Shown here in pieces: positions 2,022-29,619 of a DNA stretch of 64,000 nucleotides. The number at the start of each line of letters is the position of its first letter. Positions within the stretch are counted from its first letter, which is position 1. Source of the DNA: an uncultured Bradymonadales bacterium (GTDB taxonomy: Bacteria > Myxococcota_A > Bradymonadia > JAFGEP01); NCBI GenBank assembly GCA_964503485.1, contig CAZDBH010000003.1, positions 678 to 64,677 of the forward strand. The letters are read 5' to 3'. The notes under the pieces are model-generated. The model had not been told where the DNA came from. It saw only the letters and a program-made list of their open reading frames with translations, and did no database searches. The translations under genes were made by a program, and so were the position numbers.

Positions 2022-2951
2022 ATGGATTCGTCCCCCCAACTCGAGGCCGCTCCCCCGAAAAAGGACAGACGCTGGCTCCATTACCTCCTGTTCGGACTGA
2101 CCCTGGCGTCGACGCTCTATTTTGGTTTTGCGATGAGCGAAGGGTTCTATTTCGGGGCTGGCGGTACAGAAGGCGTCGTGCCCAGCTTTCCGTTGGTTGC
2201 TTTCGGCGCTGCGAGCTACTGCCTGTCGATCATGGGCATCCTTCTCGCACACGAAATGGGTCACTACCTGACCGCGAAAAAGTACGGTGTGGACGCGACG
2301 CCCCCGTTTTTTATCCCCATGTACACCATCTTCGGGACGATGGGGGCTTTTATACGAATGCGTGTGACCGAGAAGGTCCGGGGCGATCACTTCATGAAGA
2401 TCGCAGCCTACGGGCCGTTGGCCGGTTTCGCGGTGACTGTGCCTGTGGTCTTCTTTGGCCTGGCTCTCTCGTCGGTCGGTCCCGCGCCGGTCGATGGTGG
2501 CTCGGGAATGGCGTTGGGGGATTCCGCCCTCTTCCTGCTTTTCGAACCGATCTTCTTTAGCGAGCTACCGGCTGGGTACGACATTTGGCTGCACCCAATG
2601 GCCTTCGCGGGCTGGGCTGGCCTGTTCGTGACCGCGATCAACCTGATACCGGTCGGGCAGCTCGATGGCGGTCATATCTCCTATTGTCTTTTCGGCGAAA
2701 GTCACAACCGGGTAGTGCCTCTGGTTTTTGGCGGCTTTCTGGCCGTAACGTTTTTCGTTTTTGCAGGTTGGGTCGCGATCTGTATCTTCGTGTTCTTGAT
2801 GGGAATCAAACATCCTCCCCTTTGCACTGGGTTGCCGGTGGGGGGAGTGAGTCGAAGAATTGGTGTGCTCACCGTTGTAGTTTTCTTCCTGTCCTTTACA
2901 CCGATTCCTTTCGAGGGCTTTCCGTCTTTGTTGGAGATGCTTGCCCCATGA
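2022..2951 (+). CDS. Peptidase M50 (site-2 protease family) integral membrane zinc metalloprotease.
   Basis: Multiple predicted TM helices, an HEMGHY (HExxH) motif inside a helix, and a later LDGG motif. Confidence 0.8.
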   Translation: MDSSPQLEAAPPKKDRRWLHYLLFGLTLASTLYFGFAMSEGFYFGAGGTEGVVPSFPLVAFGAASYCLSIMGILLAHEMGHYLTAKKYGVDATPPFFIPMYTIFGTMGAFIRMRVTEKVRGDHFMKIAAYGPLAGFAVTVPVVFFGLALSSVGPAPVDGGSGMALGDSALFLLFEPIFFSELPAGYDIWLHPMAFAGWAGLFVTAINLIPVGQLDGGHISYCLFGESHNRVVPLVFGGFLAVTFFVFAGWVAICIFVFLMGIKHPPLCTGLPVGGVSRRIGVLTVVVFFLSFTPIPFEGFPSLLEMLAP

Positions 2952-3715
2952 AATTCGAGTGCGAAAGCTGTGGTCAGTTAGCCGAGGCCGCCAGTCTCGG
3001 CGTCGAGGACGGCCAAGTCGTCGTCAAATGTAGCCAGTGCGGAGCGATCAACCGCCCCGAATCCAAGGCCGGCAGCGGTCCCCACGAGGCCGCCCCCCTG
3101 GCCGAACAGCGAGAAGAGGTTGCCACCGGCAGCGTCTCGACCTCGGCGGAACCCGTCGAGGAAGAGCCTGAATCACACAGCCAGCCGGGCCCGGTTCGCA
3201 TCCACCACGACGAGATCAAGTGTCCGAAGTGTTTCCATACCCAGCTCGTGCGCTCCAATTGTGCTCGCTGTGGTCTGGACTTGAGTCAATCGGACCTGGA
3301 CAAAGCGCGGTGGGAGCCAGATCCATCAGGCAAGGAAGAGGCCTATGCGCGAGCGCTGGAGCTCTGGGCGCAGATAGAGATATCGCCGGGCGAACGCCAA
3401 CAGCACGAACGGTTTGTGTCTCACTGCACGAATCACCATCTTCTGGACCTGTGTACTAGGCGCTATCGAGAATGGATCTCGGAGAGGCCCGGCGACGAGC
3501 CTGCTACAGAATTCATGATGGTCGCTGTTCAGCGTATGGAGAAAGTGGCACTCGCGATGATGGGTACCCAGGCTTGGGCCGAGAATCTCAAGGACCGCGT
3601 GGCTTCAGTAAGGCGCTTGCTACTGTTTGTTTCGGTCGTGTTGGTCGTGCTCGGGTTGGCCCTGCTCTTCTTGATCATGAAAAAGAAACAAGAGGTACTT
3701 CCCGTCGATCTGTAG
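2948..3715 (+). CDS. MJ0042-type zinc-ribbon protein with a C-terminal transmembrane anchor.
   Basis: The ATG at 2948 overlaps the upstream stop (ATGA). MKFECESCGQ..CSQCGA forms a CxxC..CxxC ribbon and a second CPKC..CARCG pair follows. The terminal LLLFVSVVLVVLGLALLFLIM forms a TM helix. Confidence 0.55.
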   Translation: MKFECESCGQLAEAASLGVEDGQVVVKCSQCGAINRPESKAGSGPHEAAPLAEQREEVATGSVSTSAEPVEEEPESHSQPGPVRIHHDEIKCPKCFHTQLVRSNCARCGLDLSQSDLDKARWEPDPSGKEEAYARALELWAQIEISPGERQQHERFVSHCTNHHLLDLCTRRYREWISERPGDEPATEFMMVAVQRMEKVALAMMGTQAWAENLKDRVASVRRLLLFVSVVLVVLGLALLFLIMKKKQEVLPVDL

Positions 3716-3784: not shown

Positions 3785-4471
3785 ATGGTTCAGTTCAATC
3801 TGAAAAAGCGCGAAGTTGCAATCAAGATCGTTTACTACGGCCCGCCGTTGAGCGGCAAAACCACGAACCTGCAAGCGCTTTTCGGAGAAGCCGACAAAAT
3901 GTCTCGTGGCCGGCTGGTCACTCTCGAGACACGCGACGACAGAACGATCTACTTCGACATGTTGCCGGTTGTCCTGTCCTCTCGCTCCGGCCATCGTCTG
4001 ACCTTCAAGCTCTACACAGTACCCGGGCAGCCGGTGCACAATGCGACCCGTCGAGTCGTGCTGCGGGGAGTGGATGGGGTTGCGTTTATTGCCAGCAGCG
4101 AGCGCAATGAGCTCGAGAACAACACACTGTCGTGGTCGAACCTATTGGAGAACCTCGAGGCCAATAACCTGAAAATTCAGGACGTCCCGGCGGTCATCCA
4201 GTTCAATAAACAAGACCTGCCAGACGTCCTTACGGCCGCCGAAATGAAGGCCGTGGAACGTTATTCCGGTGTACCGACCTTCGGAGCCACTGTCATTCGC
4301 GGAGAGGGGGCGTACGAAACCCTCAATGGGCTGCTGTTGCGGCTCTGGGATCAACTCTGTGAACGGCAGAACCTCGACAAGCGGCTCGGCTTGACCAAAG
4401 AAGAATTCGCTTCACACGTCAAAAAAGTCTTTGGAAAATCGTTAAATCCCTATGGACGACCTGGGTTCTGA
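3785..4471 (+). CDS. mglA: MglA-family Ras-like small GTPase (paralogue of the mutual gliding-motility protein A).
   Basis: IKIVYYGPPLSGKTTNLQ is the P-loop. RDDRTIYFD carries the intrinsic Arg finger and YTVPGQ the catalytic Gln. NKQDL is the G4 box. It aligns along its length to M. xanthus MglA. A start at 3749 is also possible. No Roadblock/LC7 (MglB) gene is adjacent, so it may be a paralogue rather than the true mglA. Confidence 0.7.
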   Translation: MVQFNLKKREVAIKIVYYGPPLSGKTTNLQALFGEADKMSRGRLVTLETRDDRTIYFDMLPVVLSSRSGHRLTFKLYTVPGQPVHNATRRVVLRGVDGVAFIASSERNELENNTLSWSNLLENLEANNLKIQDVPAVIQFNKQDLPDVLTAAEMKAVERYSGVPTFGATVIRGEGAYETLNGLLLRLWDQLCERQNLDKRLGLTKEEFASHVKKVFGKSLNPYGRPGF

Positions 4472-5828
4472 AATAAGCGTCTCCCTCGCGGAAGTCGTTC
4501 ACAAAGACCGCGAGCTCTTTCAAGAGGTTTGCCAGAGCTATGTCGATCTGTATCGAGTAGCGGTGAAACTTCTCGACAACCAGGGTAGCCGACTGATGGA
4601 CATCCCCAGTCGCGCCGAGCTCTGCCAGTATATCTATGGCTTCCAGACCTGCCGGCTGGGATGTGTTCGCACGGTAAACGCGATCCGATTCCACGAACCG
4701 GCCTTTCAAACAGTGGAACAATCCGTCTGTTTCAGCGGCGCAGAGTACCGAATCGTCCCAATCCACTATGCTACTGACGTAGTTGGCAAGGTCGTCTTCG
4801 GACCGTTTCTGCCGACCACTGTCACGGGCCCTCCAGCGCACTTCTTGGCCATGGATCCGGGTCTGGACGCACGAGCCGCATGGGAAAAAACCGTGCGCTT
4901 CCGAAAGATGAGCCCCACTCTCGCCGAAAAGGTAGCTCGAAACCTGGCGACCGTGATCGAGGTGATGTCGTTTGTCGGTTTCAAGGGGCAGATGACAACC
5001 GATATGCACGTCGAATCGATAACCGAGGCCTACGCGGAGCTCGAAGCGAAGAACAAAGCACTCGAAGCATCCGTTCATACCCTTCAAGGCCTCAACGAAG
5101 AACGCTCGACCTTCCTCGCGAGAATCAGCGATCAGGTCAAGAAGCCGCTCACTAATCTCATCGGATATGCAGAAATGTTGGCCGAAGGAATCGGCGGCGA
5201 CGTTACCGAGGATCAGACCGAGTTTCTCGGGACGATGATCGCCCAAGGCGAACTGATTCTCGGTCTTGCTGAAACGATGGATGAGTTGTCCCTGATCGAG
5301 CGAGGTCAGATCAACATCGCCCCCCATTCGGCGTCGATCGAAGAGCTGCTCATGTCGGTCTTGGACTTTGGGCAGAAGCAAGGCGAGCTACACGACGTCG
5401 AGGTCGAGATTCTCCCAGCCGATCCAGACCTGCCAAAGCTGTGGGTCGACGAAGACAGAATCCGCTCGATTCTGCTGAGAATCATCGACAACGCTGTTAA
5501 GTTCACCCCCGCTGGCGGTCGAGTTGTGATTTCGGCCTTTGGGGAGGACGACATAACCGATGGCGATCCTGTGCCACCCGGCTTCGTCGCATTAGCTGTA
5601 ACCGACAGCGGAATCGGCGTGTCCCCGGCCTATCACGACCAGCTCTTTCACCCGTTCTACAGTGTTCACGGCGCCGAGTCCGCATACACCGGAACGGGCG
5701 TTGGTCTCACGATTGCGGCCGCCTATGCCGAGGCACACGGCGGCAAGATACTCGTGCAGAGCAAGCCAAACGCCGGCTCGACGTTTAGCATCCTCCTGCC
5801 AACCAGTCCGTCGAGTTCACTTCCTTAG
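4452..5828 (+). CDS. Sensor histidine kinase with a Cys-containing N-terminal sensor domain (PocR-like?), HisKA and HATPase_c domains.
   Basis: The H-box is ERSTFLARISDQVKKPL. The N box (IIDNAVKF), G1 (DSGIGV) and G2 (GTGVGL) motifs are present. It overlaps the MglA-like gene by 20 nt. The N-terminal 190 aa are soluble and carry four Cys residues. Confidence 0.8.
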   Translation: MDDLGSEISVSLAEVVHKDRELFQEVCQSYVDLYRVAVKLLDNQGSRLMDIPSRAELCQYIYGFQTCRLGCVRTVNAIRFHEPAFQTVEQSVCFSGAEYRIVPIHYATDVVGKVVFGPFLPTTVTGPPAHFLAMDPGLDARAAWEKTVRFRKMSPTLAEKVARNLATVIEVMSFVGFKGQMTTDMHVESITEAYAELEAKNKALEASVHTLQGLNEERSTFLARISDQVKKPLTNLIGYAEMLAEGIGGDVTEDQTEFLGTMIAQGELILGLAETMDELSLIERGQINIAPHSASIEELLMSVLDFGQKQGELHDVEVEILPADPDLPKLWVDEDRIRSILLRIIDNAVKFTPAGGRVVISAFGEDDITDGDPVPPGFVALAVTDSGIGVSPAYHDQLFHPFYSVHGAESAYTGTGVGLTIAAAYAEAHGGKILVQSKPNAGSTFSILLPTSPSSSLP

Positions 5829-5831
5829 CTG

Positions 5832-6812
5832 ATGTCTGAGTTCTCGAACATCGATATCTTCGTAGACCGTCTTGGCGGAAGGGGCTCCTTTGGAGGTGTA
5901 GAGATCGGAAGTGGCGACGACGCCGCTGTTCTTCGAGGAGGGACCTGGCCAGTCGTGTCGGTCGACACGCTGGTCGAAGGTGTTCACTGGGATGAGAAAT
6001 ACTCGAGCTGGGAGGATGTGGGGTACAAATTGTTGGCCTGCAACCTGAGTGATATGGCCGCGATGGGTGCCATTCCAGGGCCCTTCTTGTTGGCGCTCAG
6101 TCTGCCCTCGGCACAGGACGCCGACCTAGCACGTCGGCTGGCCGAAGGCCTGGCCATGGCGCGGGAACCCCACGGCCTGAAAGCTGAAATGGTCCGCCCG
6201 ATTGGGGGAGACTTGACCCGAAGTCCGGGCCCGGCGGTCCTTTCCTTAACCCTTTTCGGACAACCCGGACCTGGCGAGCGCCTTCTGCTGAGGAGCGGCG
6301 CCCGAGTTGGCGACAGTATCTGGGTATCAGGACGCCTTGGCCTCTCCGCCAGTGGCCTTGCGGTTCTCGAAGCAGGCTGCGATCCACAACCGTTCGAAAG
6401 GGCGATTTCTCGTCACCGGCGTCCGGCGGCTCGGCTGGAGCTGGGTCTTGCGCTTGCTGAACATGCAGGGGTCAGCGCCGCCATCGACATCAGCGACGGC
6501 ATCGGCGGCGATCTCCCACATATTCTGCGGGCATCGGGCGGCCTTGGTGCGACCATCCGGGCGGACGACCTTCCGATCGCGGACGAGACCGAGCGCGCTG
6601 GGTCCATTCTCGGACTCGATCCGCTGGAGCTGGCGATTGGGGGCGGCGAGGACTTCGAGCTCTTGGTTACAGCAACGTCCGACGAAGACGCCAACCTGAC
6701 GGCGTTGGGATTGACACCTATCGGGCGCGTTGTGGAAGAGCCGGGCATCACTTACACTGCTCGAGGGGGGAAGCTATCGAATCACGTGATTTTTGGCTAC
6801 CAACACGAGTGA
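5832..6812 (+). CDS. thiL: Thiamine-monophosphate kinase (AIR-synthase-related fold).
   Basis: DDAAVL...VVSVDTLVEGVHW and a later ISDGIGGDL match the ThiL/PurM-like signature. Length 326 aa. Confidence 0.75.
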   Translation: MSEFSNIDIFVDRLGGRGSFGGVEIGSGDDAAVLRGGTWPVVSVDTLVEGVHWDEKYSSWEDVGYKLLACNLSDMAAMGAIPGPFLLALSLPSAQDADLARRLAEGLAMAREPHGLKAEMVRPIGGDLTRSPGPAVLSLTLFGQPGPGERLLLRSGARVGDSIWVSGRLGLSASGLAVLEAGCDPQPFERAISRHRRPAARLELGLALAEHAGVSAAIDISDGIGGDLPHILRASGGLGATIRADDLPIADETERAGSILGLDPLELAIGGGEDFELLVTATSDEDANLTALGLTPIGRVVEEPGITYTARGGKLSNHVIFGYQHE

Positions 6813-6818
6813 CCCCAG

Positions 6819-7766
6819 ATGGAGTACGGACTTCAGAGCGAAGGGTTTGCGTCAAGCTACGCCGCTGACGTAGCCCCGAAGTGGGACAAGGAACTCTGCG
6901 ACGCACTTCGGCCCTACCTGGCCCACGTCGACAATGAGAATGCGCTTGCGGCCGAGTGCCGCGCTGGGCAAATCTGCGACCTCATTTTGGAGTCCGTCGG
7001 AACCGGGCGGGTAATGGCTGTCGATCCGTCCCGAGAGATGCTCGATGTGGCGCGGGGCCGTCTCGCCGAACGGGACGGGCAGTCTGTGTTCTTCAACTGC
7101 CAGTCGACCACCAATCTCAGCTACGCAGGTGGCGTCTTTGGACGTGCAGTATGTCTGGCCGCACCGCTCACCAGGAAGAAGGCCAATCTCGTCGTGGGCG
7201 AACTCAATCGGGTTGTGAAGCCCGGTGGTCTCCTCGCGATTGCGGCACCGGTTTCGGGAACCGACGTGTTTCTCGACCTCCTAGTCGAATCGATCTGCGC
7301 CTGCGCGGCCCTCAACGAGAGATTGCTCGAGGACGTCGAGGCTTTTCGGAACGATCTGGTCAGCGCGGAATCACTGTCTGATTCCCTCGAGCGCCGGGGA
7401 GCCACGGTTGTGGCCAGCGGTCAAATCGACGCCGTGGCTCAGATCAATTATCCTCAAGCGCTCTACTTCACTCCCCTTCTGCAACACCTTTTGCTGCCAC
7501 ATTGGTTGGACGTGGTTTCAGTTCCAGCGCAGCGGAAAGAGCTGATGCAGGACGTCATTAAGAGGGTGCAGCACTACTTCGAGGGTATGGACCTGTCGAT
7601 CACAATCAGCGGCGCTTGGATCGTCGCCAGTACATCCGAAGAGCGACACGAAGAGATCTACGAGATCGAGGACCTCGATGTCGCCGAGGTCGAAGAGGCT
7701 GTGAGCGTCACCTCGAGAGACCTCTTCGATCCGCTGGATGACGACGCACACGAGCCGCCGCTGTGA
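6819..7766 (+). CDS. Class I SAM-dependent methyltransferase-like protein.
   Basis: ILESVGTGRVMAVDPS resembles motif I and VKPGGLL resembles the post-I/motif II region. The call is weak. Confidence 0.45.
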   Translation: MEYGLQSEGFASSYAADVAPKWDKELCDALRPYLAHVDNENALAAECRAGQICDLILESVGTGRVMAVDPSREMLDVARGRLAERDGQSVFFNCQSTTNLSYAGGVFGRAVCLAAPLTRKKANLVVGELNRVVKPGGLLAIAAPVSGTDVFLDLLVESICACAALNERLLEDVEAFRNDLVSAESLSDSLERRGATVVASGQIDAVAQINYPQALYFTPLLQHLLLPHWLDVVSVPAQRKELMQDVIKRVQHYFEGMDLSITISGAWIVASTSEERHEEIYEIEDLDVAEVEEAVSVTSRDLFDPLDDDAHEPPL

Positions 7767-10700
7767 TACCGAACGACCCAGCCAATCTCCGGCCGGGGTC
7801 TCTATTTGCAGGCCGGTATGTCATTCAGTTGAGAGTGGCCACCGGACCCCTATCAGTTGTCCATTTCGCCAGACGTACCGACACAGGACAGCGGGTCGCG
7901 ATCAAATGCCTGCGGGTTGACCGTATAGCCGACGCGGACGTCAGTCGCAGCTTCCGTTCCGAGTGTTTGGTGGCCTCTGGATTACGACATCGAAACACAG
8001 TCCAACTACTCGACTATGGTGCCACCGGTGGCATCCCGTATCTGGTTATGGAAGCCGTGCTGGGATCCAATCTGGGCGGTGTGCTCAAGACGGGAGGCAA
8101 ACTTTCCCCACAACGCGTGACACGCATCGTCAAACAGGTTCTGGATTCGCTCGAAGAGGCGCACAGCCTCGGAGTCCTACACCGCGACATCAAGCCAACC
8201 AACATCATGTTGGCTCAACACCCGTTCGAGAAGGACTTCGTCAAAGTCCTCGACTTCGGGACCGCCACGACGGTGGGCGCTGCAGCCTCGACCCCCTTGG
8301 CAGGGACACCGCTCTACATGGCTCCCGAGCTTACTCAGGGGACGTCGGCGAGCATCGGAAGCGACTTGTACTCGCTGGGCTGCGTGGCATACGAGCTCTC
8401 GGTTGGCAGACCGCCGTTCGAGGGTGAGTCGGCGATCGATACAATGATGATGCACGCCAAGGAGCCTTTTCCTTCGCTGCCCAACGACCTCCACTCACCC
8501 GCTCTGGTGGAGTTCATACAGTGGACTACTCAGAAGGACCCGACTTCGCGTTTGAGGGACGCTCGGACGGCCAGATTGACCCTGACGGGTGAGCGCCAGT
8601 TTGCAACCTTGCCACCGCCCCTATTCCATCGTTTTGGGCAGGTACCCGCAGTCCCGCTCAAAGCCGGAGAGACCTTGAGAGCGGTCGAGGTGGAGAGACG
8701 TGATGACTCCAACCGGCTGTTACGCGCGGTGGTTGAGGCCGTCGACTCGCCTCTTCCGACCTTTGTGTTCCTGACCGGATTGTCGGGTTCGGGGGTAAGT
8801 AGATTGGCAAGCGACGTGCTGGCTCTGGACGCTATCCAGAGACGAGTCGAGGTGAAGTCCGCTCGCTGTTGGCCGTCGAAAACATCCGAAGGCAAGCCAC
8901 TGGCGAATGCCTTCGCAGAGCCAGACGACGGCGATCCGCTTTCGAGGCTCGAAATGGCCACACGGCTGTGGGATAGGGCAAAGGAAAGGCCCTCGCTCCT
9001 GTTCTTGGACGAGATTCATCTTGCTGACGAGCTTACGCTCGGAATACTGGAACGCTGGCTCCATAAGGGTCGGGGAATCCCCCAGAATCTCACAGTGGTG
9101 GGAACGGTTCGTCTGCACGATCCGCGTACCAATCGCGGCTTCGATCAGATCTGCGGCCGCCTCGTGGGCCGATGGGCCCAACATCTGAGAGTCATCTCGA
9201 TCGAGAACCCGCCGGTATCGCAGGTGGGTGAGCTCGTATCCGAGACGTTCGGACCGTCAGACCAAGCAAAGCAGATCCTGTGGAATCTGACCCGTGGCCA
9301 TCTGCATTACCTGACCCAACTCTACCATCACTGCCACCAAGACCGCTCAGCGCGAATGGCGGTGGCGACCATCACCAAAACCACCGGCGCCAGAGGTCCA
9401 GAACTGCGAATGCCGACCAGTTTTCGCGATCTCGTAATCCGGCGGCTTGCGTCTACTCGAACCGAATCGCCGGGCCTCCACTATACGTTGCTCGCGCTCG
9501 CGGTGCTGGGCGGGAGCGCACGTGTAACCAAGCTCGACGAGATGGCAAAGGCTCTGCCCGACCAAGAGGAGGGCCTCTTCAGCCTCGATGATGTCGCCGA
9601 CTACGTTTCGCTCGGTTGCTCGCTCGGCTTACTAGTGGATGAGAGCACTGGTCACGAAACGCGCGTCCGGCTTGCCAACGACGCACTGTTCGAGGTCATC
9701 GTCTCGTCGATGATCGACAGTGGCCAATGGCAGACCGCCAACCTGAAAGCGGCACAAACTGCGCTGAGTACACAGCGAGGTGCATTCGGCCAACATTCTA
9801 CCTCGGCGTTTCACGCTCTCATCGGCGGAAACGTCGCAGAAGGATGCCGGCAGTTGATTCAAGCCTCTCACACCGCCCGTTCTGGCGGAGATCTGGTGCA
9901 CGCCGGCCAGCTTCTGGAGCTGGCCCACTTGCGTGCCGAGGCGGCAGAACTCTCGCCGCAAGAACGTCTACAGATCATGTTGCTGCTGGCCGAAATCAAA
10001 CGAACCTCGGGGGTCTGGGGAGCAGCCCAAGACTTGTTTGAACGAGCCCTCGAGTTCCCGCATACCGAGGACGACTCGGAACGCCGGTTGCGTTTGCGGC
10101 TCGATCTCGCCGACGTGATGATCTCCCGGGGCGACTTAGAGAACGCGAGGGAGCAACTGAGTTCCGCGCTGGGTGCAGCTGCGGAGCTGGAGCGATTCGA
10201 CCTCGAGGGGGAAACCTCTTTCCACCTCGGCAAGCTCGAAGCAGAGGCCGGCAATCCGGAACAAGCCCAGAGCCTATTTCAGCACGCTAGATTGCTGTTG
10301 AGTCAACAGGGCGATCGTGACTGGCTTCTGAAGATCGATGTCGCTCTCGCAAACTCACTCTTGGAGAGTGGGCAGAACACAGCCGCTCAGCAGTCCCTTT
10401 CACGGGTCGACGAGTCCGCGATCGCCCAATTGGGTGGCACTGTCGAGGCGTCGTTCTTTCACATCAGAGCGAAGTTGGCGTTGCGGTCAAAGGACTACTC
10501 CAAGGCCAAAGAGGACCTCCGAGCGGCGGTCAAGTTGAGGCAGGCCGCGGGGGAAGATCGACAACTCGGTCGATTGATCATGGACCTGGCCTGGACGTAC
10601 TTTCGAGAGGGCAGCTATCAGCGTGCTGCCCGGAGCGCAGCCAGCGCTGCCCGGAACTTTGCGATCGTCGACTATGCCTCCGGAGAATCGGCCGCTCGAG

Positions 10701-11347
10701 CGCTGCTGATCCGCGCCTCCTACCAGAGCAGGAACTTCAATGATGTGATCGACGGGGCGGAGGAGGCCTTGAGCTTGAGTGAATTCGTGGACAACACGGT
10801 CGAGTGGGCCTCAACCTCCCATTTCGCGTGTCGTGCTGCGCTCCGTGTGGGGTCCAGCGAGGAAGCCCTGAGGCATGCTCAGAACCTCAATGGTCATGTC
10901 GAGCAACACGGTCTGGAAAAACTCCGAGCTGCCGCGACACTCGATCTGGCTGACAGCCTGTTTTGCAATGGTAGATTCGAGGAAGCTCGCGGTCAGGTCG
11001 AGGCCGAATCGGCCGCGTTAGTTGCCCAGCCGTGGGCGACCGAAGCCGCCTTCCTGAGATTGCGCCTGGCCATTCTGGACCGACCGGCCGATATCGAAGC
11101 AGCTGCCGGCTTGGTCCTGTCACAACTCGACTCAGTCGACCCGTATGCCGATCTCGAGGGAAGGCTGCTCTTGGCCTTGTCAGCGGAACTCGGTTGGGCT
11201 GGGTGTCCGGGTGACAACCCGACTCGCCTCTTCGACCTATCAAAGCAGCCAGGCTCAGATCCAGCGGCAACACTCGACTATCTCTTGGGGTCTCATGCTT
11301 CAGATCAGGTCGAACACGCCCGACAGGCGGTGTTGAGGAAACTCTAG
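7763..11347 (+). CDS. Ser/Thr protein kinase fused to a STAND-type NTPase domain and C-terminal TPR-like repeats.
   Basis: Kinase motifs are VAIKCL, HRDIKPTNIM, DFG and APE. A central P-loop-like segment (FLTGLSGSGVSRL) and a Walker B (LLFLDEIH) follow. The C-terminal about 500 aa are alpha-helical repeats. The start overlaps the upstream stop. Confidence 0.8.
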   Translation: MIPNDPANLRPGSLFAGRYVIQLRVATGPLSVVHFARRTDTGQRVAIKCLRVDRIADADVSRSFRSECLVASGLRHRNTVQLLDYGATGGIPYLVMEAVLGSNLGGVLKTGGKLSPQRVTRIVKQVLDSLEEAHSLGVLHRDIKPTNIMLAQHPFEKDFVKVLDFGTATTVGAAASTPLAGTPLYMAPELTQGTSASIGSDLYSLGCVAYELSVGRPPFEGESAIDTMMMHAKEPFPSLPNDLHSPALVEFIQWTTQKDPTSRLRDARTARLTLTGERQFATLPPPLFHRFGQVPAVPLKAGETLRAVEVERRDDSNRLLRAVVEAVDSPLPTFVFLTGLSGSGVSRLASDVLALDAIQRRVEVKSARCWPSKTSEGKPLANAFAEPDDGDPLSRLEMATRLWDRAKERPSLLFLDEIHLADELTLGILERWLHKGRGIPQNLTVVGTVRLHDPRTNRGFDQICGRLVGRWAQHLRVISIENPPVSQVGELVSETFGPSDQAKQILWNLTRGHLHYLTQLYHHCHQDRSARMAVATITKTTGARGPELRMPTSFRDLVIRRLASTRTESPGLHYTLLALAVLGGSARVTKLDEMAKALPDQEEGLFSLDDVADYVSLGCSLGLLVDESTGHETRVRLANDALFEVIVSSMIDSGQWQTANLKAAQTALSTQRGAFGQHSTSAFHALIGGNVAEGCRQLIQASHTARSGGDLVHAGQLLELAHLRAEAAELSPQERLQIMLLLAEIKRTSGVWGAAQDLFERALEFPHTEDDSERRLRLRLDLADVMISRGDLENAREQLSSALGAAAELERFDLEGETSFHLGKLEAEAGNPEQAQSLFQHARLLLSQQGDRDWLLKIDVALANSLLESGQNTAAQQSLSRVDESAIAQLGGTVEASFFHIRAKLALRSKDYSKAKEDLRAAVKLRQAAGEDRQLGRLIMDLAWTYFREGSYQRAARSAASAARNFAIVDYASGESAARALLIRASYQSRNFNDVIDGAEEALSLSEFVDNTVEWASTSHFACRAALRVGSSEEALRHAQNLNGHVEQHGLEKLRAAATLDLADSLFCNGRFEEARGQVEAESAALVAQPWATEAAFLRLRLAILDRPADIEAAAGLVLSQLDSVDPYADLEGRLLLALSAELGWAGCPGDNPTRLFDLSKQPGSDPAATLDYLLGSHASDQVEHARQAVLRKL

Positions 11348-11363: not shown

Positions 11364-12182
11364 TCACTCGCTAGCAAGAGGCTGAACGGTGACGTTGTAG
11401 GTCGCTCTCACCCTCGGGTTGTGGCTTCCGACGTAGATCCTCACCAGTCCTTCTGAGAACCAGGCATCAATGGCTGGGTTGATTGAACCGCGGCTGTCGT
11501 CATTGCAGAAGATGCCATCGGACGATTTGACCACCAGCGTCAAGTCGCTCGACGACTCGGCCAAGATTCCCAGGTGCGCGTCGCTCGACAGCAAAATCGT
11601 GTGATTGGCCTCTTCCGAGATTGCCCCCAAGCAGGCTGCTCCATGAACCTGTGCGGACTGATCGCCCCCGCTGGTTCCCTGCAGCCGAAGCGGTCTGCTG
11701 CCCGTGACTTCTGGGGCGAGCGGCCGACCGGTATGGCTCACCAGAACGGAGTACTCACCCGTGGCATCACTGCTGGTGGTGCCGACGTAAAGCGAATACT
11801 CCCCGATTGCGAGGTAGTTGGTTAGCGCCGGGTCGCGATTCGTCTCAGATGCGTCATCGTTGCAGAAGCCCAAGTTCCCACCGCCCAGAAGTAAAGTCGG
11901 ATCGTGGTCTCCGTCTGTTGTGACTTCGACGCGAATGACGCCCTCTTCGATCACATCGAGAAGGAACTGGGGTTGGCGCGATACATAGCCCGGACAGCCG
12001 TGGACGACGGATCCGGCTGAAACCTCGCCACCATAGCTACCCGAGAAGTTTCCAGTGAATCCCTCGCGCACGATGATCCGGGATGGCCCCGTCTGGGCAC
12101 TGGCCACACAGGCTATGACCGTTACAATCATCCAGATAGTGATCGATATATGAACTCTCAGGGAGCGAGTTCCGTGTTGCAT
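11364..12182 (-). CDS. Secreted protein with two internally duplicated PPC-like (pre-peptidase C-terminal) beta-sandwich domains.
   Basis: A signal peptide (ITIWMIVTVIACVASAQ) is followed by two repeats, each ending in LGFCNDD or GIFCNDD with DPTLLL / DLTLVV motifs. Confidence 0.5.
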   Translation of the reverse strand: MQHGTRSLRVHISITIWMIVTVIACVASAQTGPSRIIVREGFTGNFSGSYGGEVSAGSVVHGCPGYVSRQPQFLLDVIEEGVIRVEVTTDGDHDPTLLLGGGNLGFCNDDASETNRDPALTNYLAIGEYSLYVGTTSSDATGEYSVLVSHTGRPLAPEVTGSRPLRLQGTSGGDQSAQVHGAACLGAISEEANHTILLSSDAHLGILAESSSDLTLVVKSSDGIFCNDDSRGSINPAIDAWFSEGLVRIYVGSHNPRVRATYNVTVQPLASE

Positions 12183-12321: not shown

Positions 12322-13251
12322 ATGGCAATCGTCCTCCTGATTGACCCGAGTCGAACGATTCGACGGGTTGTCGAAATGGCCTTCAAGGCTTCCGGGCATG
12401 ATATTGTGGCTGCCGATTCGGCTGCTGCGGGCAAAGAGGCGGTGGTTCGATATGATCCAGCAGTCGTCTTGCTCAACTACCGTCTGCCCGACGCCTCCGG
12501 TCTTGAATTGTTGGGTGCACTAAGAGCCGATCCTGCGACCTCTGGCGTGCCGATTGTCGTTATGGGTGGAACCTTCGAGGCCTTTGATGCGGACCAAGCC
12601 GCGCAAGCGGGCGCGAACTCGGTCCTGATGAAACCCTTCAAAACAGAAGCTTTGCGGCAAACCGTCGCCGGACTGATCAGTGGTGCAGGCGTTCCTGCTA
12701 GCGCACAGCCTTCGGCGCCACAGCCAGCCGCGCTTCCGCAGGCACCGCCACCACCGCCACCTGCACCGCAGGGAATGAGGCCTCCAGCTCCAATGGCCGC
12801 CCCTCGGCCGGCAGCAGCTGCGCCACCGGCACCGCCCGCACCTCCGAGAATGGCACCGCCTCCGGCGCCGCCAGTAAGGCAGGCTCCCGCAATGGCACCT
12901 CCGGTGGCACCGCCACCGGCCGCGCCGCCCGCGCCGCCAGTTGCGATGGCTGCTCCGGTTCCGCCGGTCGCTGCGCCAGTACCAGCTTCACCGCCTGTCC
13001 CGAGTGGCAGACCAGTCGGAGCGCCTCCTGCGGCCATGGTGACCGCCGATCCTGAAGCAGTCAGGGCGGCAGTTCGGGAGTTTCTACCCCAGGTAGTGCG
13101 CGACGCCCTCGCCCAGTTGCTTCGTGATGGACTAGAAAATCGCCTGCGCAGCTACGCCCAGGAACGGGTGGCGGCCATGTTCCGAGAGAACCTGCGCGAG
13201 ACTGCTCGCCAGCTCGTGGAACAAGAGCTTCAACGCTACCGAGGCGGATGA
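12322..13251 (+). CDS. Response-regulator-like protein: receiver domain with the phospho-acceptor Asp replaced (pseudo-receiver), a long Pro/Ala-rich linker and a conserved helical C-terminal domain (RomR/FrzS-like architecture).
   Basis: N-terminal LLIDPSRTIRR..VVLLNYRLPDASG..VMKPF has the receiver fold, but the residue at the canonical phosphorylation position is Asn (LLN). About 110 aa of P/A low complexity follow, then a helical 60-aa tail. Confidence 0.65.
   Translation: MAIVLLIDPSRTIRRVVEMAFKASGHDIVAADSAAAGKEAVVRYDPAVVLLNYRLPDASGLELLGALRADPATSGVPIVVMGGTFEAFDADQAAQAGANSVLMKPFKTEALRQTVAGLISGAGVPASAQPSAPQPAALPQAPPPPPPAPQGMRPPAPMAAPRPAAAAPPAPPAPPRMAPPPAPPVRQAPAMAPPVAPPPAAPPAPPVAMAAPVPPVAAPVPASPPVPSGRPVGAPPAAMVTADPEAVRAAVREFLPQVVRDALAQLLRDGLENRLRSYAQERVAAMFRENLRETARQLVEQELQRYRGG
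12700..13020 (+). repeat. GC-rich low-complexity tract encoding the Pro/Ala-rich linker of the pseudo-receiver protein.
   Basis: Reiterated ccgcc(a/g)ccggc(a/g)ccgcc units. It generates long spurious antisense ORFs. Confidence 0.6.
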
Positions 13252-13772
13252 ACGACCGACTGCGAGAACAGGTCCTCGCAGACCCGACTATTCCCAAACC
13301 AATCCGAAGTGCACTCGAACAGGGACTTCCGCTCGAAGAGATTCGTCTCGATCGGTTCGGAGCCTGGTGGCATGCCGGCCAACGGGTTGAGCATGAGCGG
13401 ATCTGCCGACTGTTTCATCGCAGTATCGAGCGGACTGAAGGCGGCACATACGTTTTGGCCATCTGGCATTTCACGTACCCAATTGTTGTCGAAGATACCC
13501 CGCTCTTTGTTTTGCGAGTCCGAATACCCGAAGACGGCACTGAGAAGGTGGCCGTTGAGCTCTCCGACGGTTCGACCGAGCAACTCGAGTTGGAGGATCT
13601 GAGGCTCGATGGCGAGCGCCTCACAACCACCTTCCAGAACCGACCCTTCGAGGCCCGCTTTCTGCGAGACCCCTACCATACGCTGTTGGACGCCGTTCGC
13701 GATTACCCCGGTGGCGGCTATGCACTGGCCGTCGGTGACACGCTCCAGCCACTGCCGTTTGATTCCGCGTGA
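13248..13772 (+). CDS. Conserved hypothetical protein, translationally coupled to the pseudo-receiver gene.
   Basis: ATGA overlap with the upstream stop. 174 aa, no recognised motif. Confidence 0.45.
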   Translation: MNDRLREQVLADPTIPKPIRSALEQGLPLEEIRLDRFGAWWHAGQRVEHERICRLFHRSIERTEGGTYVLAIWHFTYPIVVEDTPLFVLRVRIPEDGTEKVAVELSDGSTEQLELEDLRLDGERLTTTFQNRPFEARFLRDPYHTLLDAVRDYPGGGYALAVGDTLQPLPFDSA

Positions 13773-17215: not shown

Positions 17216-17372
17216 TCCTCCCTAATGGCCCCGCCAACCGGTGCGTCGCCAAGTATAGCAGGCTTGGCGGGTTCGGTAGATGGTCACTTTTGCAAAATCG
17301 GCAGTTTCAGCGGAAAAACAAATCTTTGTTACTTTACAACAACGCTTTAGGTGGCCAATACTCCCCGAAGCC

Positions 17373-18014
17373 ATGGCAAGAATTTGTCCCGAATGCGGTG
17401 TTACGAGCCCCGGAGAAGTCGACTTCTGCGAGCTCTGCGGTCACGACCTACGTGGGAGTGCGACCCCATCCGGCGGCCACCCCCACAGGATGCCGAGCGG
17501 CCTACTGCGTGTGCCTGGCGAGGCCGATAGCGGAACTGACCAGGGTTCCCGGCCGATCCAACACACTGAAGATCTCCCGGTGGTTCAGGTACAACCCGTC
17601 AACAAGGCGGCGGTCGGCGAAGCAGCTGCGCGGGTCTCTCTGTCAGGCGACTTCACCGGTCTCGAGGGCTCAATTGTCGGGCGAGTGAAACTCGTCGTCG
17701 AGCAGGGGAAGATCATTGGCGAGCAGTATCTACTGTCTGAGAGCCTCATGCTTATTGGACGCGTCGACCCCGAAGCCAATTTCTACCCCGATATCGATCT
17801 GAGCGGACAGGATAACGAATACGTGCATCGTCAACATGCCCGGATTCAATTCATCGACGGGGGCGCCAAAATCTCCGTGGAGCACATCGGCGGTCACAAC
17901 CAGACCCTTGTGAACAACTCGCCTCTCGAGGTCGGAGAACTCGTCGAACTCCGAGTCGGCGACAGACTCCGGGTCGGCCGAGTCGTCATGCGACTCGTGT
18001 GGTTTGAGTCGTGA
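17373..18014 (+). CDS. FHA-domain protein with an N-terminal zinc ribbon.
   Basis: MARICPECG..CELCGH forms a CxxC..CxxC ribbon. The C-terminal FHA signature is LIGR...D..L....VHRQHARI...G...V.H.GG.N.T.VN. Confidence 0.7.
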   Translation: MARICPECGVTSPGEVDFCELCGHDLRGSATPSGGHPHRMPSGLLRVPGEADSGTDQGSRPIQHTEDLPVVQVQPVNKAAVGEAAARVSLSGDFTGLEGSIVGRVKLVVEQGKIIGEQYLLSESLMLIGRVDPEANFYPDIDLSGQDNEYVHRQHARIQFIDGGAKISVEHIGGHNQTLVNNSPLEVGELVELRVGDRLRVGRVVMRLVWFES

Positions 18015-27537: not shown

Positions 27538-28800
27538 GTGATGATCGTACAATGCCCAGGCTGCAACTCTCGCTACCGAGTTAGGGAAGAAAAACTGCCC
27601 TCAGGAGGCGGGAACATCGAGTGCCCGAGTTGTCACTCTATCTTCCCAGCTGCCCCTGCTAGCCGAGTCGCAGCGCCGAGAAACACCCTTCCCGGATCGG
27701 GCCCCAAGGCCACGGCCACCAATTCGCCTCCTCCGCTGCCCGAAGGCGCTGAGGCGGGTGCGACCGTTCTCATCGAACCAGGGCAAAGCGAAGGTTCGAC
27801 GACCTGGAAGATTCGGACTCCGGTCGGCCTTGTGTATGATTTTCCGAACTTGGCCGCCCTCAAGAACTGGCTGTCTACCCGTGACAGCGTCGCCGATATG
27901 GTGGCCAGCACCGACGAAGGCACCACCTGGCAAAACTTGACCGCTTTTGACCAGCTCAAGGGCTCGTTACCCAAAGGGGGTAGGGCCGCCAAGGGCGCCG
28001 AACCACCCGCTCTCTCCAAAAAGGAAGGGCTGGCAGAGGCCATGGACGCCGTTCTCAGCAATCGTAAGAGCACTGAGATGCCTGGGTTCCAGCCGCCTCC
28101 CAAAGCGGTTCAAAAGCGGCCAGACCCGAAGACTATGCTCGAAAAACCCCGTAGGGCGAGCGCACCAGCCCGTCCCGCCTCGAGGGGTCCCGGCCAAAAG
28201 AACCGGCCGGCCACAAAACCAACTTTCCAGAGAATTCGGACCGCTCCCGCTCAAGAAGGCGGGGGTTTCGGGGCCATGCTGGGCATCCTTATCTTCGGTG
28301 CCGTGGTCTTCGGATTCACAGCCCAACTGGCTGGAGTCGACGTACTCGGTAAGATTGGAATCACCAATTCCGACGCCCCAGAGGTTGGAGACGACCCAGC
28401 ACGCATTGCGCCGGCTCCGTCAGAAGCCCTGCCGCCGATCGATGAGGTCGAATGGGTCGTCGTAGATGACCCGTATGTTCCGAATCAGGTCAGTCCCCAG
28501 CGCCCGCTCGGCAACGCAACTGAGTCGATAGGACTTATCCAACAGGGTGTCAGTCCCACCGATGTGCGTGTTGCGGGTCTCATACAGGAGGCGCAGCGCG
28601 AGATTCAGCAGGAGAACTACGACACCGCCGCCCAACTGCTCGGAAGCGCCTCCCATCGCGCGCCGACAAACCCAGAACCCGTCTGCCTCCTGGCTGGCGT
28701 AAACCGGGCTCAGGGCCGAATCGTAGAGGCGCAGACTCTTGAAGAGCGCTGTACGGCGTTGCGCGCAGCTCAGTCGCAAACCGCTGCTCAACAGAACTAG
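27538..28800 (+). CDS. MJ0042-type zinc-ribbon protein with a DUF4339-like domain, a Pro-rich linker, a TM helix and a TPR-like tail.
   Basis: MMIVQCPGCNSRYRV...IECPSCHS forms the ribbon. WKIRTPVGLVYDFPNLAALKNWL...WQNLTAFDQLKGSL is the DUF4339-like segment. The TM helix is LGILIFGAVVFGF. Confidence 0.6.
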   Translation: MMIVQCPGCNSRYRVREEKLPSGGGNIECPSCHSIFPAAPASRVAAPRNTLPGSGPKATATNSPPPLPEGAEAGATVLIEPGQSEGSTTWKIRTPVGLVYDFPNLAALKNWLSTRDSVADMVASTDEGTTWQNLTAFDQLKGSLPKGGRAAKGAEPPALSKKEGLAEAMDAVLSNRKSTEMPGFQPPPKAVQKRPDPKTMLEKPRRASAPARPASRGPGQKNRPATKPTFQRIRTAPAQEGGGFGAMLGILIFGAVVFGFTAQLAGVDVLGKIGITNSDAPEVGDDPARIAPAPSEALPPIDEVEWVVVDDPYVPNQVSPQRPLGNATESIGLIQQGVSPTDVRVAGLIQEAQREIQQENYDTAAQLLGSASHRAPTNPEPVCLLAGVNRAQGRIVEAQTLEERCTALRAAQSQTAAQQN

Positions 28801-28815
28801 CTGGGAGACCAACGG

Positions 28816-29619
28816 TTGACCGAGGCCCCGCAAATCCGAATCGCCTGCCCGGAATGTGAGAGGAAGTACAAGATACCCGCCTCGTCGCTCACCGGGAAAC
28901 CGCGCACGCTCAAATGCTCGAGTTGTGGGCACACCTTTCCCCTGCGAGCCCCCAAGAGAGTCGGGCGAGAACCCTCGGGCTTCAGGGTGAAAGATCCAGA
29001 CGGACTCCAGGTCAGAAGCGTGCCCTCTCTCGATACGATTCGGCGACTGATTATCGAGGGCCAATTGTCGGGCGACCACCAACTGGCCAAGGCAGCAGAC
29101 GGACCTTGGCAGCGGCTCGGCGATATCGAGCAACTCAAAGCCTCGTTGCGAATGGCAAAGTCGGGCGAATCGAAGGCCGCTCAGCCTCAAGACAGTCCCC
29201 CTGAAAGTGAAGCGGGCGGAAAGGCGGTCGCAGAGGGCGAAAGTGAGCCAGTGCCGGTCCCTGCCGTCCTGTCAGAGCTGGCGGCGACTCCAGAGCCCGA
29301 AACAACCCCAATACCAGACAACAGCGACGAAGACCCCCAAACGGAACCTGTCGAAGAATGTGCCGGCAGTTCGGACGATGTGAGCTCGTCGGAAGCGGGC
29401 CTAAGTGATGTGACGGTCCCTACCGCGAAGGGTGGACAACCGGTCGAACCCGCGCCTCAGCCCCAAGCGGCACCTCAGCCCGAAGCCTCGCCCCCAAGCA
29501 CTCAACCACCGGCACAGGTGGCTAAGAAGGAGGGTGGCTCTCCCATCGCCATCCTGAGTATACTCGCTGCAGTCGCTGCGATTGTGGTCTTTCTGCTGTT
29601 CTATTTCGAGGTAATCTAA
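28816..29619 (+). CDS. MJ0042-type zinc-ribbon protein with a DUF4339-like domain and a C-terminal TM anchor (paralogue of 27538-28800).
   Basis: IRIACPECERKYKI...LKCSSCGH forms the ribbon. GFRVKDPDGLQVRSVPSLDTIRRLIIEGQL...WQRLGDIEQLKASL is the DUF4339-like segment. The TM helix is ILSILAAVAAIVVFLLFY. Confidence 0.6.
   Translation: MTEAPQIRIACPECERKYKIPASSLTGKPRTLKCSSCGHTFPLRAPKRVGREPSGFRVKDPDGLQVRSVPSLDTIRRLIIEGQLSGDHQLAKAADGPWQRLGDIEQLKASLRMAKSGESKAAQPQDSPPESEAGGKAVAEGESEPVPVPAVLSELAATPEPETTPIPDNSDEDPQTEPVEECAGSSDDVSSSEAGLSDVTVPTAKGGQPVEPAPQPQAAPQPEASPPSTQPPAQVAKKEGGSPIAILSILAAVAAIVVFLLFYFEVI

Follow-up and report, generated by a model that had tools for sequence, protein, structure and literature searches.

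A RomR-related pseudo-receiver gene overlapping a DUF1285-fold gene: a candidate phosphorylation-independent pair in an uncultured Bradymonadales bacterium

We analyzed a 64,000-nucleotide stretch of DNA from an uncultured Bradymonadales bacterium (assembly GCA_964503485.1, contig CAZDBH010000003.1, positions 678 to 64,677), referred to here as the window. In it, two overlapping genes encode a 309-amino-acid (aa) protein related to RomR and a 174-aa protein of the DUF1285 fold. The receiver domain of the first protein lacks the phospho-acceptor Asp, and relatives of the two genes are found together in several arrangements. We give about even chances to the reading that the two genes encode a phosphorylation-independent scaffold or adaptor pair, built on the RomR-related pseudo-receiver and the DUF1285 protein. 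Both open reading frames (ORFs) and their ATGA overlap lie where an earlier reading of the bare sequence (the original prediction) had placed them. The parts of the unit, with the evidence for each, are as follows:

12322..13251, forward strand: RomR-related pseudo-response-regulator gene ('Q-type'), 309 aa, stop included; ORF list, Pfam Response_reg, orthologues at loci L003, L008, L010 and L011, ratio of nonsynonymous to synonymous change (dN/dS)
12322..12675, forward strand: pseudo-receiver domain, residues 1-118, with D8-P9-N52-G82-K104 against D-D-D-T-K; CheY alignments, AlphaFold2 (AF2) model, RomR-REC profile
12475..12477, forward strand: codon AAC, Asn52, at the phospho-acceptor position (CheY D57, RomR D53); sequence, alignments
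12676..13047, forward strand: Pro/Ala-rich intrinsically disordered linker, residues 119-242; composition, AF2
13048..13248, forward strand: conserved helical tail, residues 243-309, made of a family-specific proximal helix (REFLPQVVRDALAQLLRDGLENRLR) and a distal RomR-C-like segment; tail search, AF2, hhalign, dN/dS
13248..13251, forward strand: ATGA start/stop overlap joining the receiver gene and the DUF1285 gene (translational coupling); sequence
13248..13772, forward strand: DUF1285-fold protein gene, 174 aa; homologues with PF06938, AF2 model, Foldseek

The receiver fold is intact, as had been predicted. It scores 65 bits on Pfam Response_reg (PF00072), for which the cutoff is 30.2. In the AF2 model, residues 1-120 have a predicted local distance difference test score (pLDDT) of ~93 and form five strands alternating with helices in the standard beta-alpha topology. 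The equivalents of the CheY catalytic residues were taken from phmmer alignments to CheY structures and from a MAFFT alignment, and the two agree:

CheY D12: Asp8 (kept)
CheY D13 (Mg-binding): Pro9
CheY D57 (acceptor): Asn52
CheY T87: Gly82
CheY K109: Lys104 (kept)

Both alignments thus bear out the Asp-to-Asn exchange that the original prediction had read at the acceptor. A pseudo-receiver is defined as a recognisable receiver without the residues needed for phosphotransfer (DD, D, T, K) (PMC12632262). The window's receiver fits this definition, as had been claimed, with D13, D57 and T87 replaced by Pro9, Asn52 and Gly82. Three of the five catalytic positions are altered, the acceptor among them. 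The original prediction had named a shift of the Asp by one or two residues as a finding that would refute it, and we rejected such a shift. No acidic residue lies within four positions of Asn52 (local VVLLNYRLPD). The Asp at +5 (Asp57, in the LPD motif) is nearly invariant, also among relatives whose true acceptor is in place, and so is not an acceptor that has moved. The D-to-N observation therefore stands.

The receiver is followed by a linker of ~124 aa (residues 119-242), not of 110 aa as first estimated. It consists of 40% Pro and 29% Ala (69% together) and has 5 charged residues. AF2 models no secondary structure in it (pLDDT 43-67). Among orthologues its length ranges from 58 to 354 aa, and its composition varies too. 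The tail is short, conserved and helical, as had been proposed: its 67 aa are modelled as a single long helix (residues 244-307, pLDDT 53-80). An exhaustive search with this tail found 13 proteins that carry it, and these, together with the proteins of loci L003 and L012, make up the family that we name Q-type, a term coined here. The Q-type tail consensus is RE(L/F)LPxxVRDALxQLLRDGLExRLRxY....(E)L. A tail-profile search of a word-indexed database returned three short fragments only. The acceptor position differs within the family:

Asp: P0054, P0155, P0158, P0160
Asn: the window's protein, P0051-53, the L003 protein, P0151, P0159
Ser: P0154, the L012 protein

In the receiver tree, the Asn and Ser proteins form one sub-clade (bootstrap 99). 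This indicates that the acceptor Asp was lost one time only, in the Asn/Ser sub-clade of Q-type.

In orthologues from five independent metagenome loci the receiver and the tail are conserved; the linker varies, yet every orthologue has an intact reading frame. In the comparison with the L008 orthologue, the receiver has a dN/dS of 0.049 and the tail, the most constrained part of the protein, one of 0.009; in more distant orthologues synonymous change is saturated. Since both ends are conserved and dN/dS is low, the receiver gene is, judged by its evolution, a real gene and not a chance ORF, and encodes a working protein under strong purifying selection. In place of the 309-aa ORF, which they missed, public gene calls on the identical contig list a tail ORF of 71 aa and an antisense ORF of 97 aa. 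A collection of 5.8 billion proteins contains no exact copy of the 309-aa protein. The Pro/Ala linker region yields spurious antisense ORFs that misled the public gene callers, and because the callers split or miss the gene, Q-type is under-represented in protein databases. Split or missed calls were also seen at L001 (5451-6004) and L002 (2608-3161), where the sequence is the same as window 12322-13251, and for P0152, P0163 and P0164. The tail-only public ORFs are 71-73 aa long, and the 97-aa antisense ORF sits inside the Pro/Ala linker.

RomR consists of a receiver, an unstructured linker and a C-terminal domain, RomR-C (Keilberg et al. 2012, PMC3441718). RomR-C is alpha-helical, Glu-rich and negatively charged with an invariant Trp and Pro (PMC3441718; PMC10329633), and it mediates oligomerisation and MglC binding (PMC10329633). 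The window's protein resembles RomR of M. xanthus (MXAN_4461), Myxococcales, Geobacter/Pelobacter, Acidobacteria and others in its receiver, its compositionally biased disordered linker and its helical C-terminus. Sixty-four of its distant matches are of RomR type, with a receiver, a disordered linker and a ...WEVVPxLAExxIxEEIxRL tail, although the list that yielded them may be biased by Pro-rich words. By this layout they are bona fide RomR proteins and the closest wider relatives of the window's protein. Its receiver scores 93 bits on the RomR-REC profile, against 65 bits for CheY, and shares with RomR the signatures S.T...VVE and G.F..FD...A..GA....KPF. The receiver tree unites Q-type in one clade (bootstrap 95) beside the RomR receivers, with a bootstrap of 19 at that junction. 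The linker, 124 aa long, agrees with that of RomR in being predicted unstructured and variable among orthologues; linker length is lineage-specific in both families.

The tail is remotely similar to RomR-C in its distal half. By hhalign this half matches RomR-C with a probability of 85% and E 6e-6, and none of 100 column shuffles reaches the score. The proximal helix, extra to RomR and highly conserved, does not match significantly, since 15 of 100 shuffles reach its score; for this reason a register set by eye, REFLP against WEVVP, was rejected. The whole tail gives a weaker match (2 of 200 shuffles, one an unexplained outlier of 132.6). The predicted similarity between the tail and RomR-C is thus borne out, as a remote one, for the distal half and not for the proximal one. 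In addition, the Q-type tail has no Trp and is Arg-rich; its net charge is +1 to +2, while the 64 RomR-C tails average -2.7. The Pro of the RomR-C motif is missing in the Asn clade. A canonical RomR-C motif was not found elsewhere in the 64-kb window in any of the six frames.

The residue after KPF also separates the two families. In M. xanthus RomR this residue, E108, docks RomX by a salt bridge (bioRxiv 10.1101/2024.02.20.581209). It is E or D in 59 of 59 RomR-type proteins and acidic in none of 13 Q-type proteins, nine of which have Lys; it is Lys107 in the window's protein. Gene order, in contrast, links the families: the Asp-retaining Q-type genes of P0054 and P0158 lie directly upstream of valS, like the canonical RomR gene of P0076, which suggests an old romR-valS synteny. 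Directly downstream valS genes were seen at the canonical RomR-type gene of L020 and at the Asp-retaining Q-type genes of L017-L019, and at L021 a tRNA-synthetase fragment lies two genes off. The predicted RomR likeness therefore holds for architecture, receiver signatures, distal tail and valS synteny, and fails for the RomR-C Trp and charge, the phosphorylatable Asp (D53 in RomR, Asn52 here) and the acidic RomX-docking residue. On these sequence features, Q-type appears to be a small sister family of RomR, distinct from RomR proper. One protein among the receiver matches, P0119 (311 aa), has a receiver domain fused to a Roadblock/LC7 (MglB-like) domain.

The 174-aa partner, left uncharacterised in the original prediction, is by its model a two-domain, beta-rich protein of the DUF1285 fold, a family with solved homologous structures. 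Its homologues at 27-54% identity carry PF06938, and two of them are named DUF1285 by NCBI. The protein itself reaches 24 bits on DUF1285_N, below the Pfam cutoff of 29.3, and phmmer aligns it to 2re3 with E = 0.047. Its AF2 model has a pLDDT of 94 and a predicted template-modelling (TM) score, pTM, of 0.87. The only significant matches of this model in the PDB, by Foldseek, are the DUF1285 structures SPO0140 (2re3) and Sbal_2486 (2ra9), with a probability of 1.00, E 1e-8 to 8e-8 and TM 0.54-0.71, at an identity of only 16-19%. Invariant in the subfamily are W40, H42, D83-T84-P85, A136-R137-F138 and R140. These residues lie in the beta1-beta2 loop, in the N-domain and in the strands of the C-domain, elements that PMC2954208 assigns to the interdomain cleft. 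The crystallographers described this cleft as conserved, suggested that its ligand derives from a nucleotide and proposed that the protein takes part in signalling (PMC2954208). The genomic context described for DUF1285 is Nudix hydrolases in proteobacteria (PMC2954208); here it is a response regulator. In the indexed literature mentioning DUF1285, an association with receivers is not reported. A search of NCBIfam matched neither protein of the pair to a specific family and gave generic regulators alone, far below cutoffs.

The conserved pairing of Q-type and DUF1285 genes is our strongest new result, based on ~8 loci of one uncultured lineage. The receiver gene precedes the DUF1285 gene with the same 4-bp overlap in the window, L008, L010 and L011, and with a 7-bp gap in the rearranged neighbourhood of L003. 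In L012 the two genes are convergent. In L017 and L018 the order is DUF1285, receiver, valS, and the receiver retains its Asp. The pair thus occurs in three arrangements at two genomic positions, irrespective of the acceptor residue. Since the pairing includes the Asp-retaining L017 and L018 and takes three arrangements, the association is older than the Asp loss and has outlived an order swap, an inversion and a relocation. The coupling sets Q-type apart from canonical RomR, as neither of the two canonical RomR genes examined has a DUF1285 neighbour. The L012 receiver gene, with its Ser acceptor, encodes a ~400-aa acidic/Pro linker and lies just downstream of the DUF1285 gene.

In the scaffold or adaptor reading, the pseudo-receiver would be a fixed protein-docking surface and not a switch, since the acceptor was lost while the receiver stays under purifying selection. 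Its alpha1/beta5-alpha5 face would bind a small partner, and the linker and the tail would serve self-association and localisation, by analogy with RomR. RomX, a three-helix bundle (PDB 8ZNA), docks the RomR receiver and bridges it to MglA-GTP. Because the acidic residue for RomX docking is Lys in the window's protein, its partner is probably not RomX-like, and docking may have switched from a RomX-type protein to another one. The best candidate would be the co-translated DUF1285 protein, to which we assign a RomX-like role by analogy. It would supply a ligand-dependent regulatory input formerly given by phosphorylation. A relationship between DUF1285 and RomX themselves was rejected because the folds differ, a beta-rich two-domain protein against a three-helix bundle; moreover, the RomX-binding residue is not conserved in Q-type.

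Receivers that work without phosphorylation are known from related systems. In the polarity-associated proteins FrzS and AglZ of M. xanthus, an unphosphorylated N-terminal receiver fold is a protein-docking surface (PMC12632262). The original prediction called the window's protein FrzS-like, which is true only generically, in the sense of a pseudo-receiver. FrzS has a long C-terminal coiled coil, a domain absent here, whereas the window's protein has a disordered Pro-rich linker and a 64-residue helix. Its receiver groups with RomR-type receivers in searches, and the protein is set apart from FrzS here on domain layout. A closer parallel is RomR of Bdellovibrio bacteriovorus (Bd2761), a RomR-lineage protein that also evolved off phospho-control (PMC6428892). 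Its REC domain is truncated and without the acidic pair, it tolerates substitutions of D55, and the gene for a candidate cognate kinase has become a pseudogene (PMC6428892). This loss parallels the Asp-less receiver and a His-less kinase of the window, described below. Bd2761, however, keeps the acceptor Asp and a RomR-C 38% identical to that of M. xanthus, while the window's protein has Asn, a diverged tail and a DUF1285 partner. In M. xanthus itself, RomR D53N keeps polar localisation and supports motility (PMC2034494). The role of D53 is disputed by later work, as cited in PMC6428892, and we take the D53N phenotype as an analogy only.

Several points weigh against the scaffold or adaptor reading. 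The evidence for pairing comes from only ~8 independent loci, all of them from uncultured relatives. Further DUF1285 relatives, one from a genome scan and four from a metagenome scan, are distant, and none is paired (smaller alignment A3). A receiver neighbour is absent at the more distant DUF1285 genes of the same subfamily in L005, L007, L009 and L013-16. In L012 a PspA-like gene, and not the receiver gene, overlaps the DUF1285 start. Adjacency and translational coupling would be indirect evidence of a physical interaction between the two proteins, and the DUF1285 ligand itself is only a proposal (PMC2954208). The tail has neither the Trp nor the negative charge of RomR-C, so that RomR-like oligomerisation or pole binding would be an analogy only, and in the receiver tree the junction of Q-type and RomR has a bootstrap of only 19%. 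As to a link with MglA, the shared gene neighbourhood comes from one clade and includes the housekeeping gene thiL. MglB/Roadblock, Frz and pilus genes were not seen among the larger ORFs of the 64-kb window, which is not the whole genome.

The genes around the pair bear on its possible role. The receiver gene's ATG is preceded by a purine-rich AGGTGAG and that of the DUF1285 gene by GAGG. The pair is separated by a 139-bp gap from a divergent gene for a 272-aa secreted protein, and a CBS-pair gene starts 126 bp past it. A promoter and terminator scan of the region was uninformative, with no terminators and with promoter-like sites at chance level. The other features considered here are:

3785..4471, forward strand: small GTPase of the MglA family, extended by ~45 aa at its C-terminus; match to T. 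thermophilus MglA (3t12) at 164 bits, E 3e-47
4452..5828, forward strand: PocR-HisKA-HATPase 'kinase' without the phospho-His (H to D); Pfam, HK853 alignment
L008 1208-2584 and L012 10185-11543 (reverse strand): PocR kinase orthologues; HK853 alignment
7763-11347, forward strand: Ser/Thr kinase (STK)-AAA-TPR protein, 1194 aa
14339-17215, reverse strand: ClpB-like double AAA+ ATPase
17280-18014, forward strand: FHA-domain protein
27538-28800 and 28816-29619, forward strand: two adjacent genes for proteins with an N-terminal Zn_ribbon_4 (PF13717) zinc ribbon

The 272-aa protein (window 11364-12182, reverse strand) has a signal-peptide-like N-terminus and no Pfam or NCBIfam match. Its gene also lies beside the receiver gene in L003, L008, L010, L011 and L012. 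A Cys-rich, probably membrane-anchored protein with CxxC pairs and no family match is encoded 5' of the GTPase gene, at about 2945-3715. Zn_ribbon_4 proteins are numerous in Myxococcota. In L012, a gene for a 276-aa PspA/IM30-like protein (5174-6004, forward strand) takes the receiver gene's place with a 4-bp overlap at the DUF1285 start. In L007 (3747-5063) and L009 (8001-9029), a PilZ-domain gene comes after a distant DUF1285 gene, and before it lie a metallophosphoesterase gene and two genes whose products match no family. These neighbours hint at a cyclic-di-GMP setting for the distant relatives.

The MglA-like module that the original prediction placed 8 kb away does contain a genuine MglA-family GTPase, and the similarity to a RomR system extends to this nearby gene, though MglB was not seen in the window. 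The GTPase gene is adjoined by the kinase gene, whose start overlaps its end, instead of an MglB/Roadblock gene. A GTPase of this family is also found near the pair in L008 and L012, and its C-terminal extension is conserved. The kinase conserves its N, G1, F and G2 ATP-binding boxes and its PocR sensor domain. In place of the ISHELRTPLT of HK853, the window and L008 read ISDQVKKPLT, and the L012 orthologue has Gly at the His position. The kinase resembles DivL of Caulobacter, a histidine-kinase homologue without the phospho-His, and the DivL structure 4q20 is among its PDB matches. In DivL a Tyr stands in place of the His, and the receiver that it binds can be phosphorylated. In the window, unlike in DivL and DivK, the His of the kinase and the Asp of the receiver are both lost, and they are lost in the same lineages. 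This parallel loss fits, and does not prove, that the kinase and the receiver were formerly a cognate pair.

Both the window-type loci and L012, whose arrangement differs, carry one set of genes: the GTPase, the His-less kinase, thiL, the secreted protein, the Q-type receiver and DUF1285. A functional link between the pair and the GTPase is suggestive only, because both arrangements come from one clade and the set includes thiL. One neighbour, at first read as AIRS-like, turned out to be ThiL, and the synteny argument for MglA was down-weighted. The weakest step of the proposed mechanism would be that the pair acts on or with the MglA-family GTPase and the His-less PocR 'kinase' 8 kb upstream. 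In its fullest form, the His-less kinase and the Asp-less receiver would have become phospho-dead together and been rewired around the MglA GTPase. DUF1285 would stand in for phosphorylation as well as for RomX: as an adaptor that senses a small molecule, it would dock on the pseudo-receiver and control the GTPase. We regard this full scheme as a long shot. If true, it would give DUF1285 its first function and reveal a bacterial polarity module that is ligand-gated and not phosphorylation-gated.

Alternatively, the pseudo-receiver and DUF1285 may form a functional module outside MglA and polarity, for example in envelope or proteostasis stress signalling with the STK, FHA, ClpB-like and PspA-like proteins. 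We consider this possible, though on the whole unlikely. The STK-AAA-TPR, ClpB-like and FHA genes flank the pair in the window, L003, L008, L010 and L011, but are missing from the compact L012, where the MglA-like gene and the PocR kinase remain, no more than 6 kb from the pair. The PspA/IM30-like gene that overlaps the DUF1285 start in L012 would suit this alternative. So would the 8-kb distance to the MglA gene in the window, with thiL, methyltransferase, kinase and opposite-strand genes intervening, and the Asp-retaining DUF1285-receiver-valS loci, where no GTPase is in view on the short contigs. On the other hand, the protein is most closely related to RomR proteins, the known biology of which centres on MglA, and the lineages in which the receiver lost its Asp are those in which the His of the kinase fused to the MglA gene was lost.

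It is highly improbable that the receiver is still a phosphorylation switch, acting through Asp8, the LPD Asp57, a Ser or Thr, or by way of an unusual kinase, for instance the Ser/Thr kinase encoded next to it. In favour of such a switch, the receiver still has Asp8 and Lys104, the large Ser/Thr kinase and the FHA protein are conserved neighbours in window-type loci, and the L012 and P0154 relatives have Ser at the acceptor position. However, the three altered catalytic positions include the change of the Mg-binding D13 to Pro and of T87 to Gly. Asp57 is equally conserved where the true acceptor is kept and is thus not compensatory. The sole histidine kinase of the conserved cluster is without its His, and no further receivers or kinases were found in the window. 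A decaying, functionless RomR paralogue with DUF1285 adjacency as meaningless inherited synteny is strongly disfavoured and hardly credible: the acceptor is lost, the ORF is uncalled by public gene callers and the family, a small one, is restricted to a single uncultured lineage, but dN/dS is low in receiver and tail (0.049 and 0.009, with synonymous sites saturated in more distant orthologues), the linker varies without breaking the frame in any orthologue, and the adjacency outlasts an order swap, an inversion and a changed genomic location.

Phospho-dead receivers are already known, including one RomR lineage; what is new is the coupling to DUF1285 and the matched His-less kinase. Among bacterial front-rear polarity systems, the best-studied one has RomR as its base scaffold, and RomR's need for phosphorylation is disputed. 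That a lineage is without the acceptor and still strongly constrained speaks for a receiver fold that, in this family, is mainly a docking surface. The loss of the kinase His beside an MglA paralogue hints at a phosphorelay turned into a binding-only module. DUF1285, a structural-genomics orphan whose structures were solved in 2007, gains its first consistent, rearrangement-proof gene partner. This raises the hypothesis that DUF1285 binds a RomR-like receiver or tail, and that a ligand may modulate the binding.

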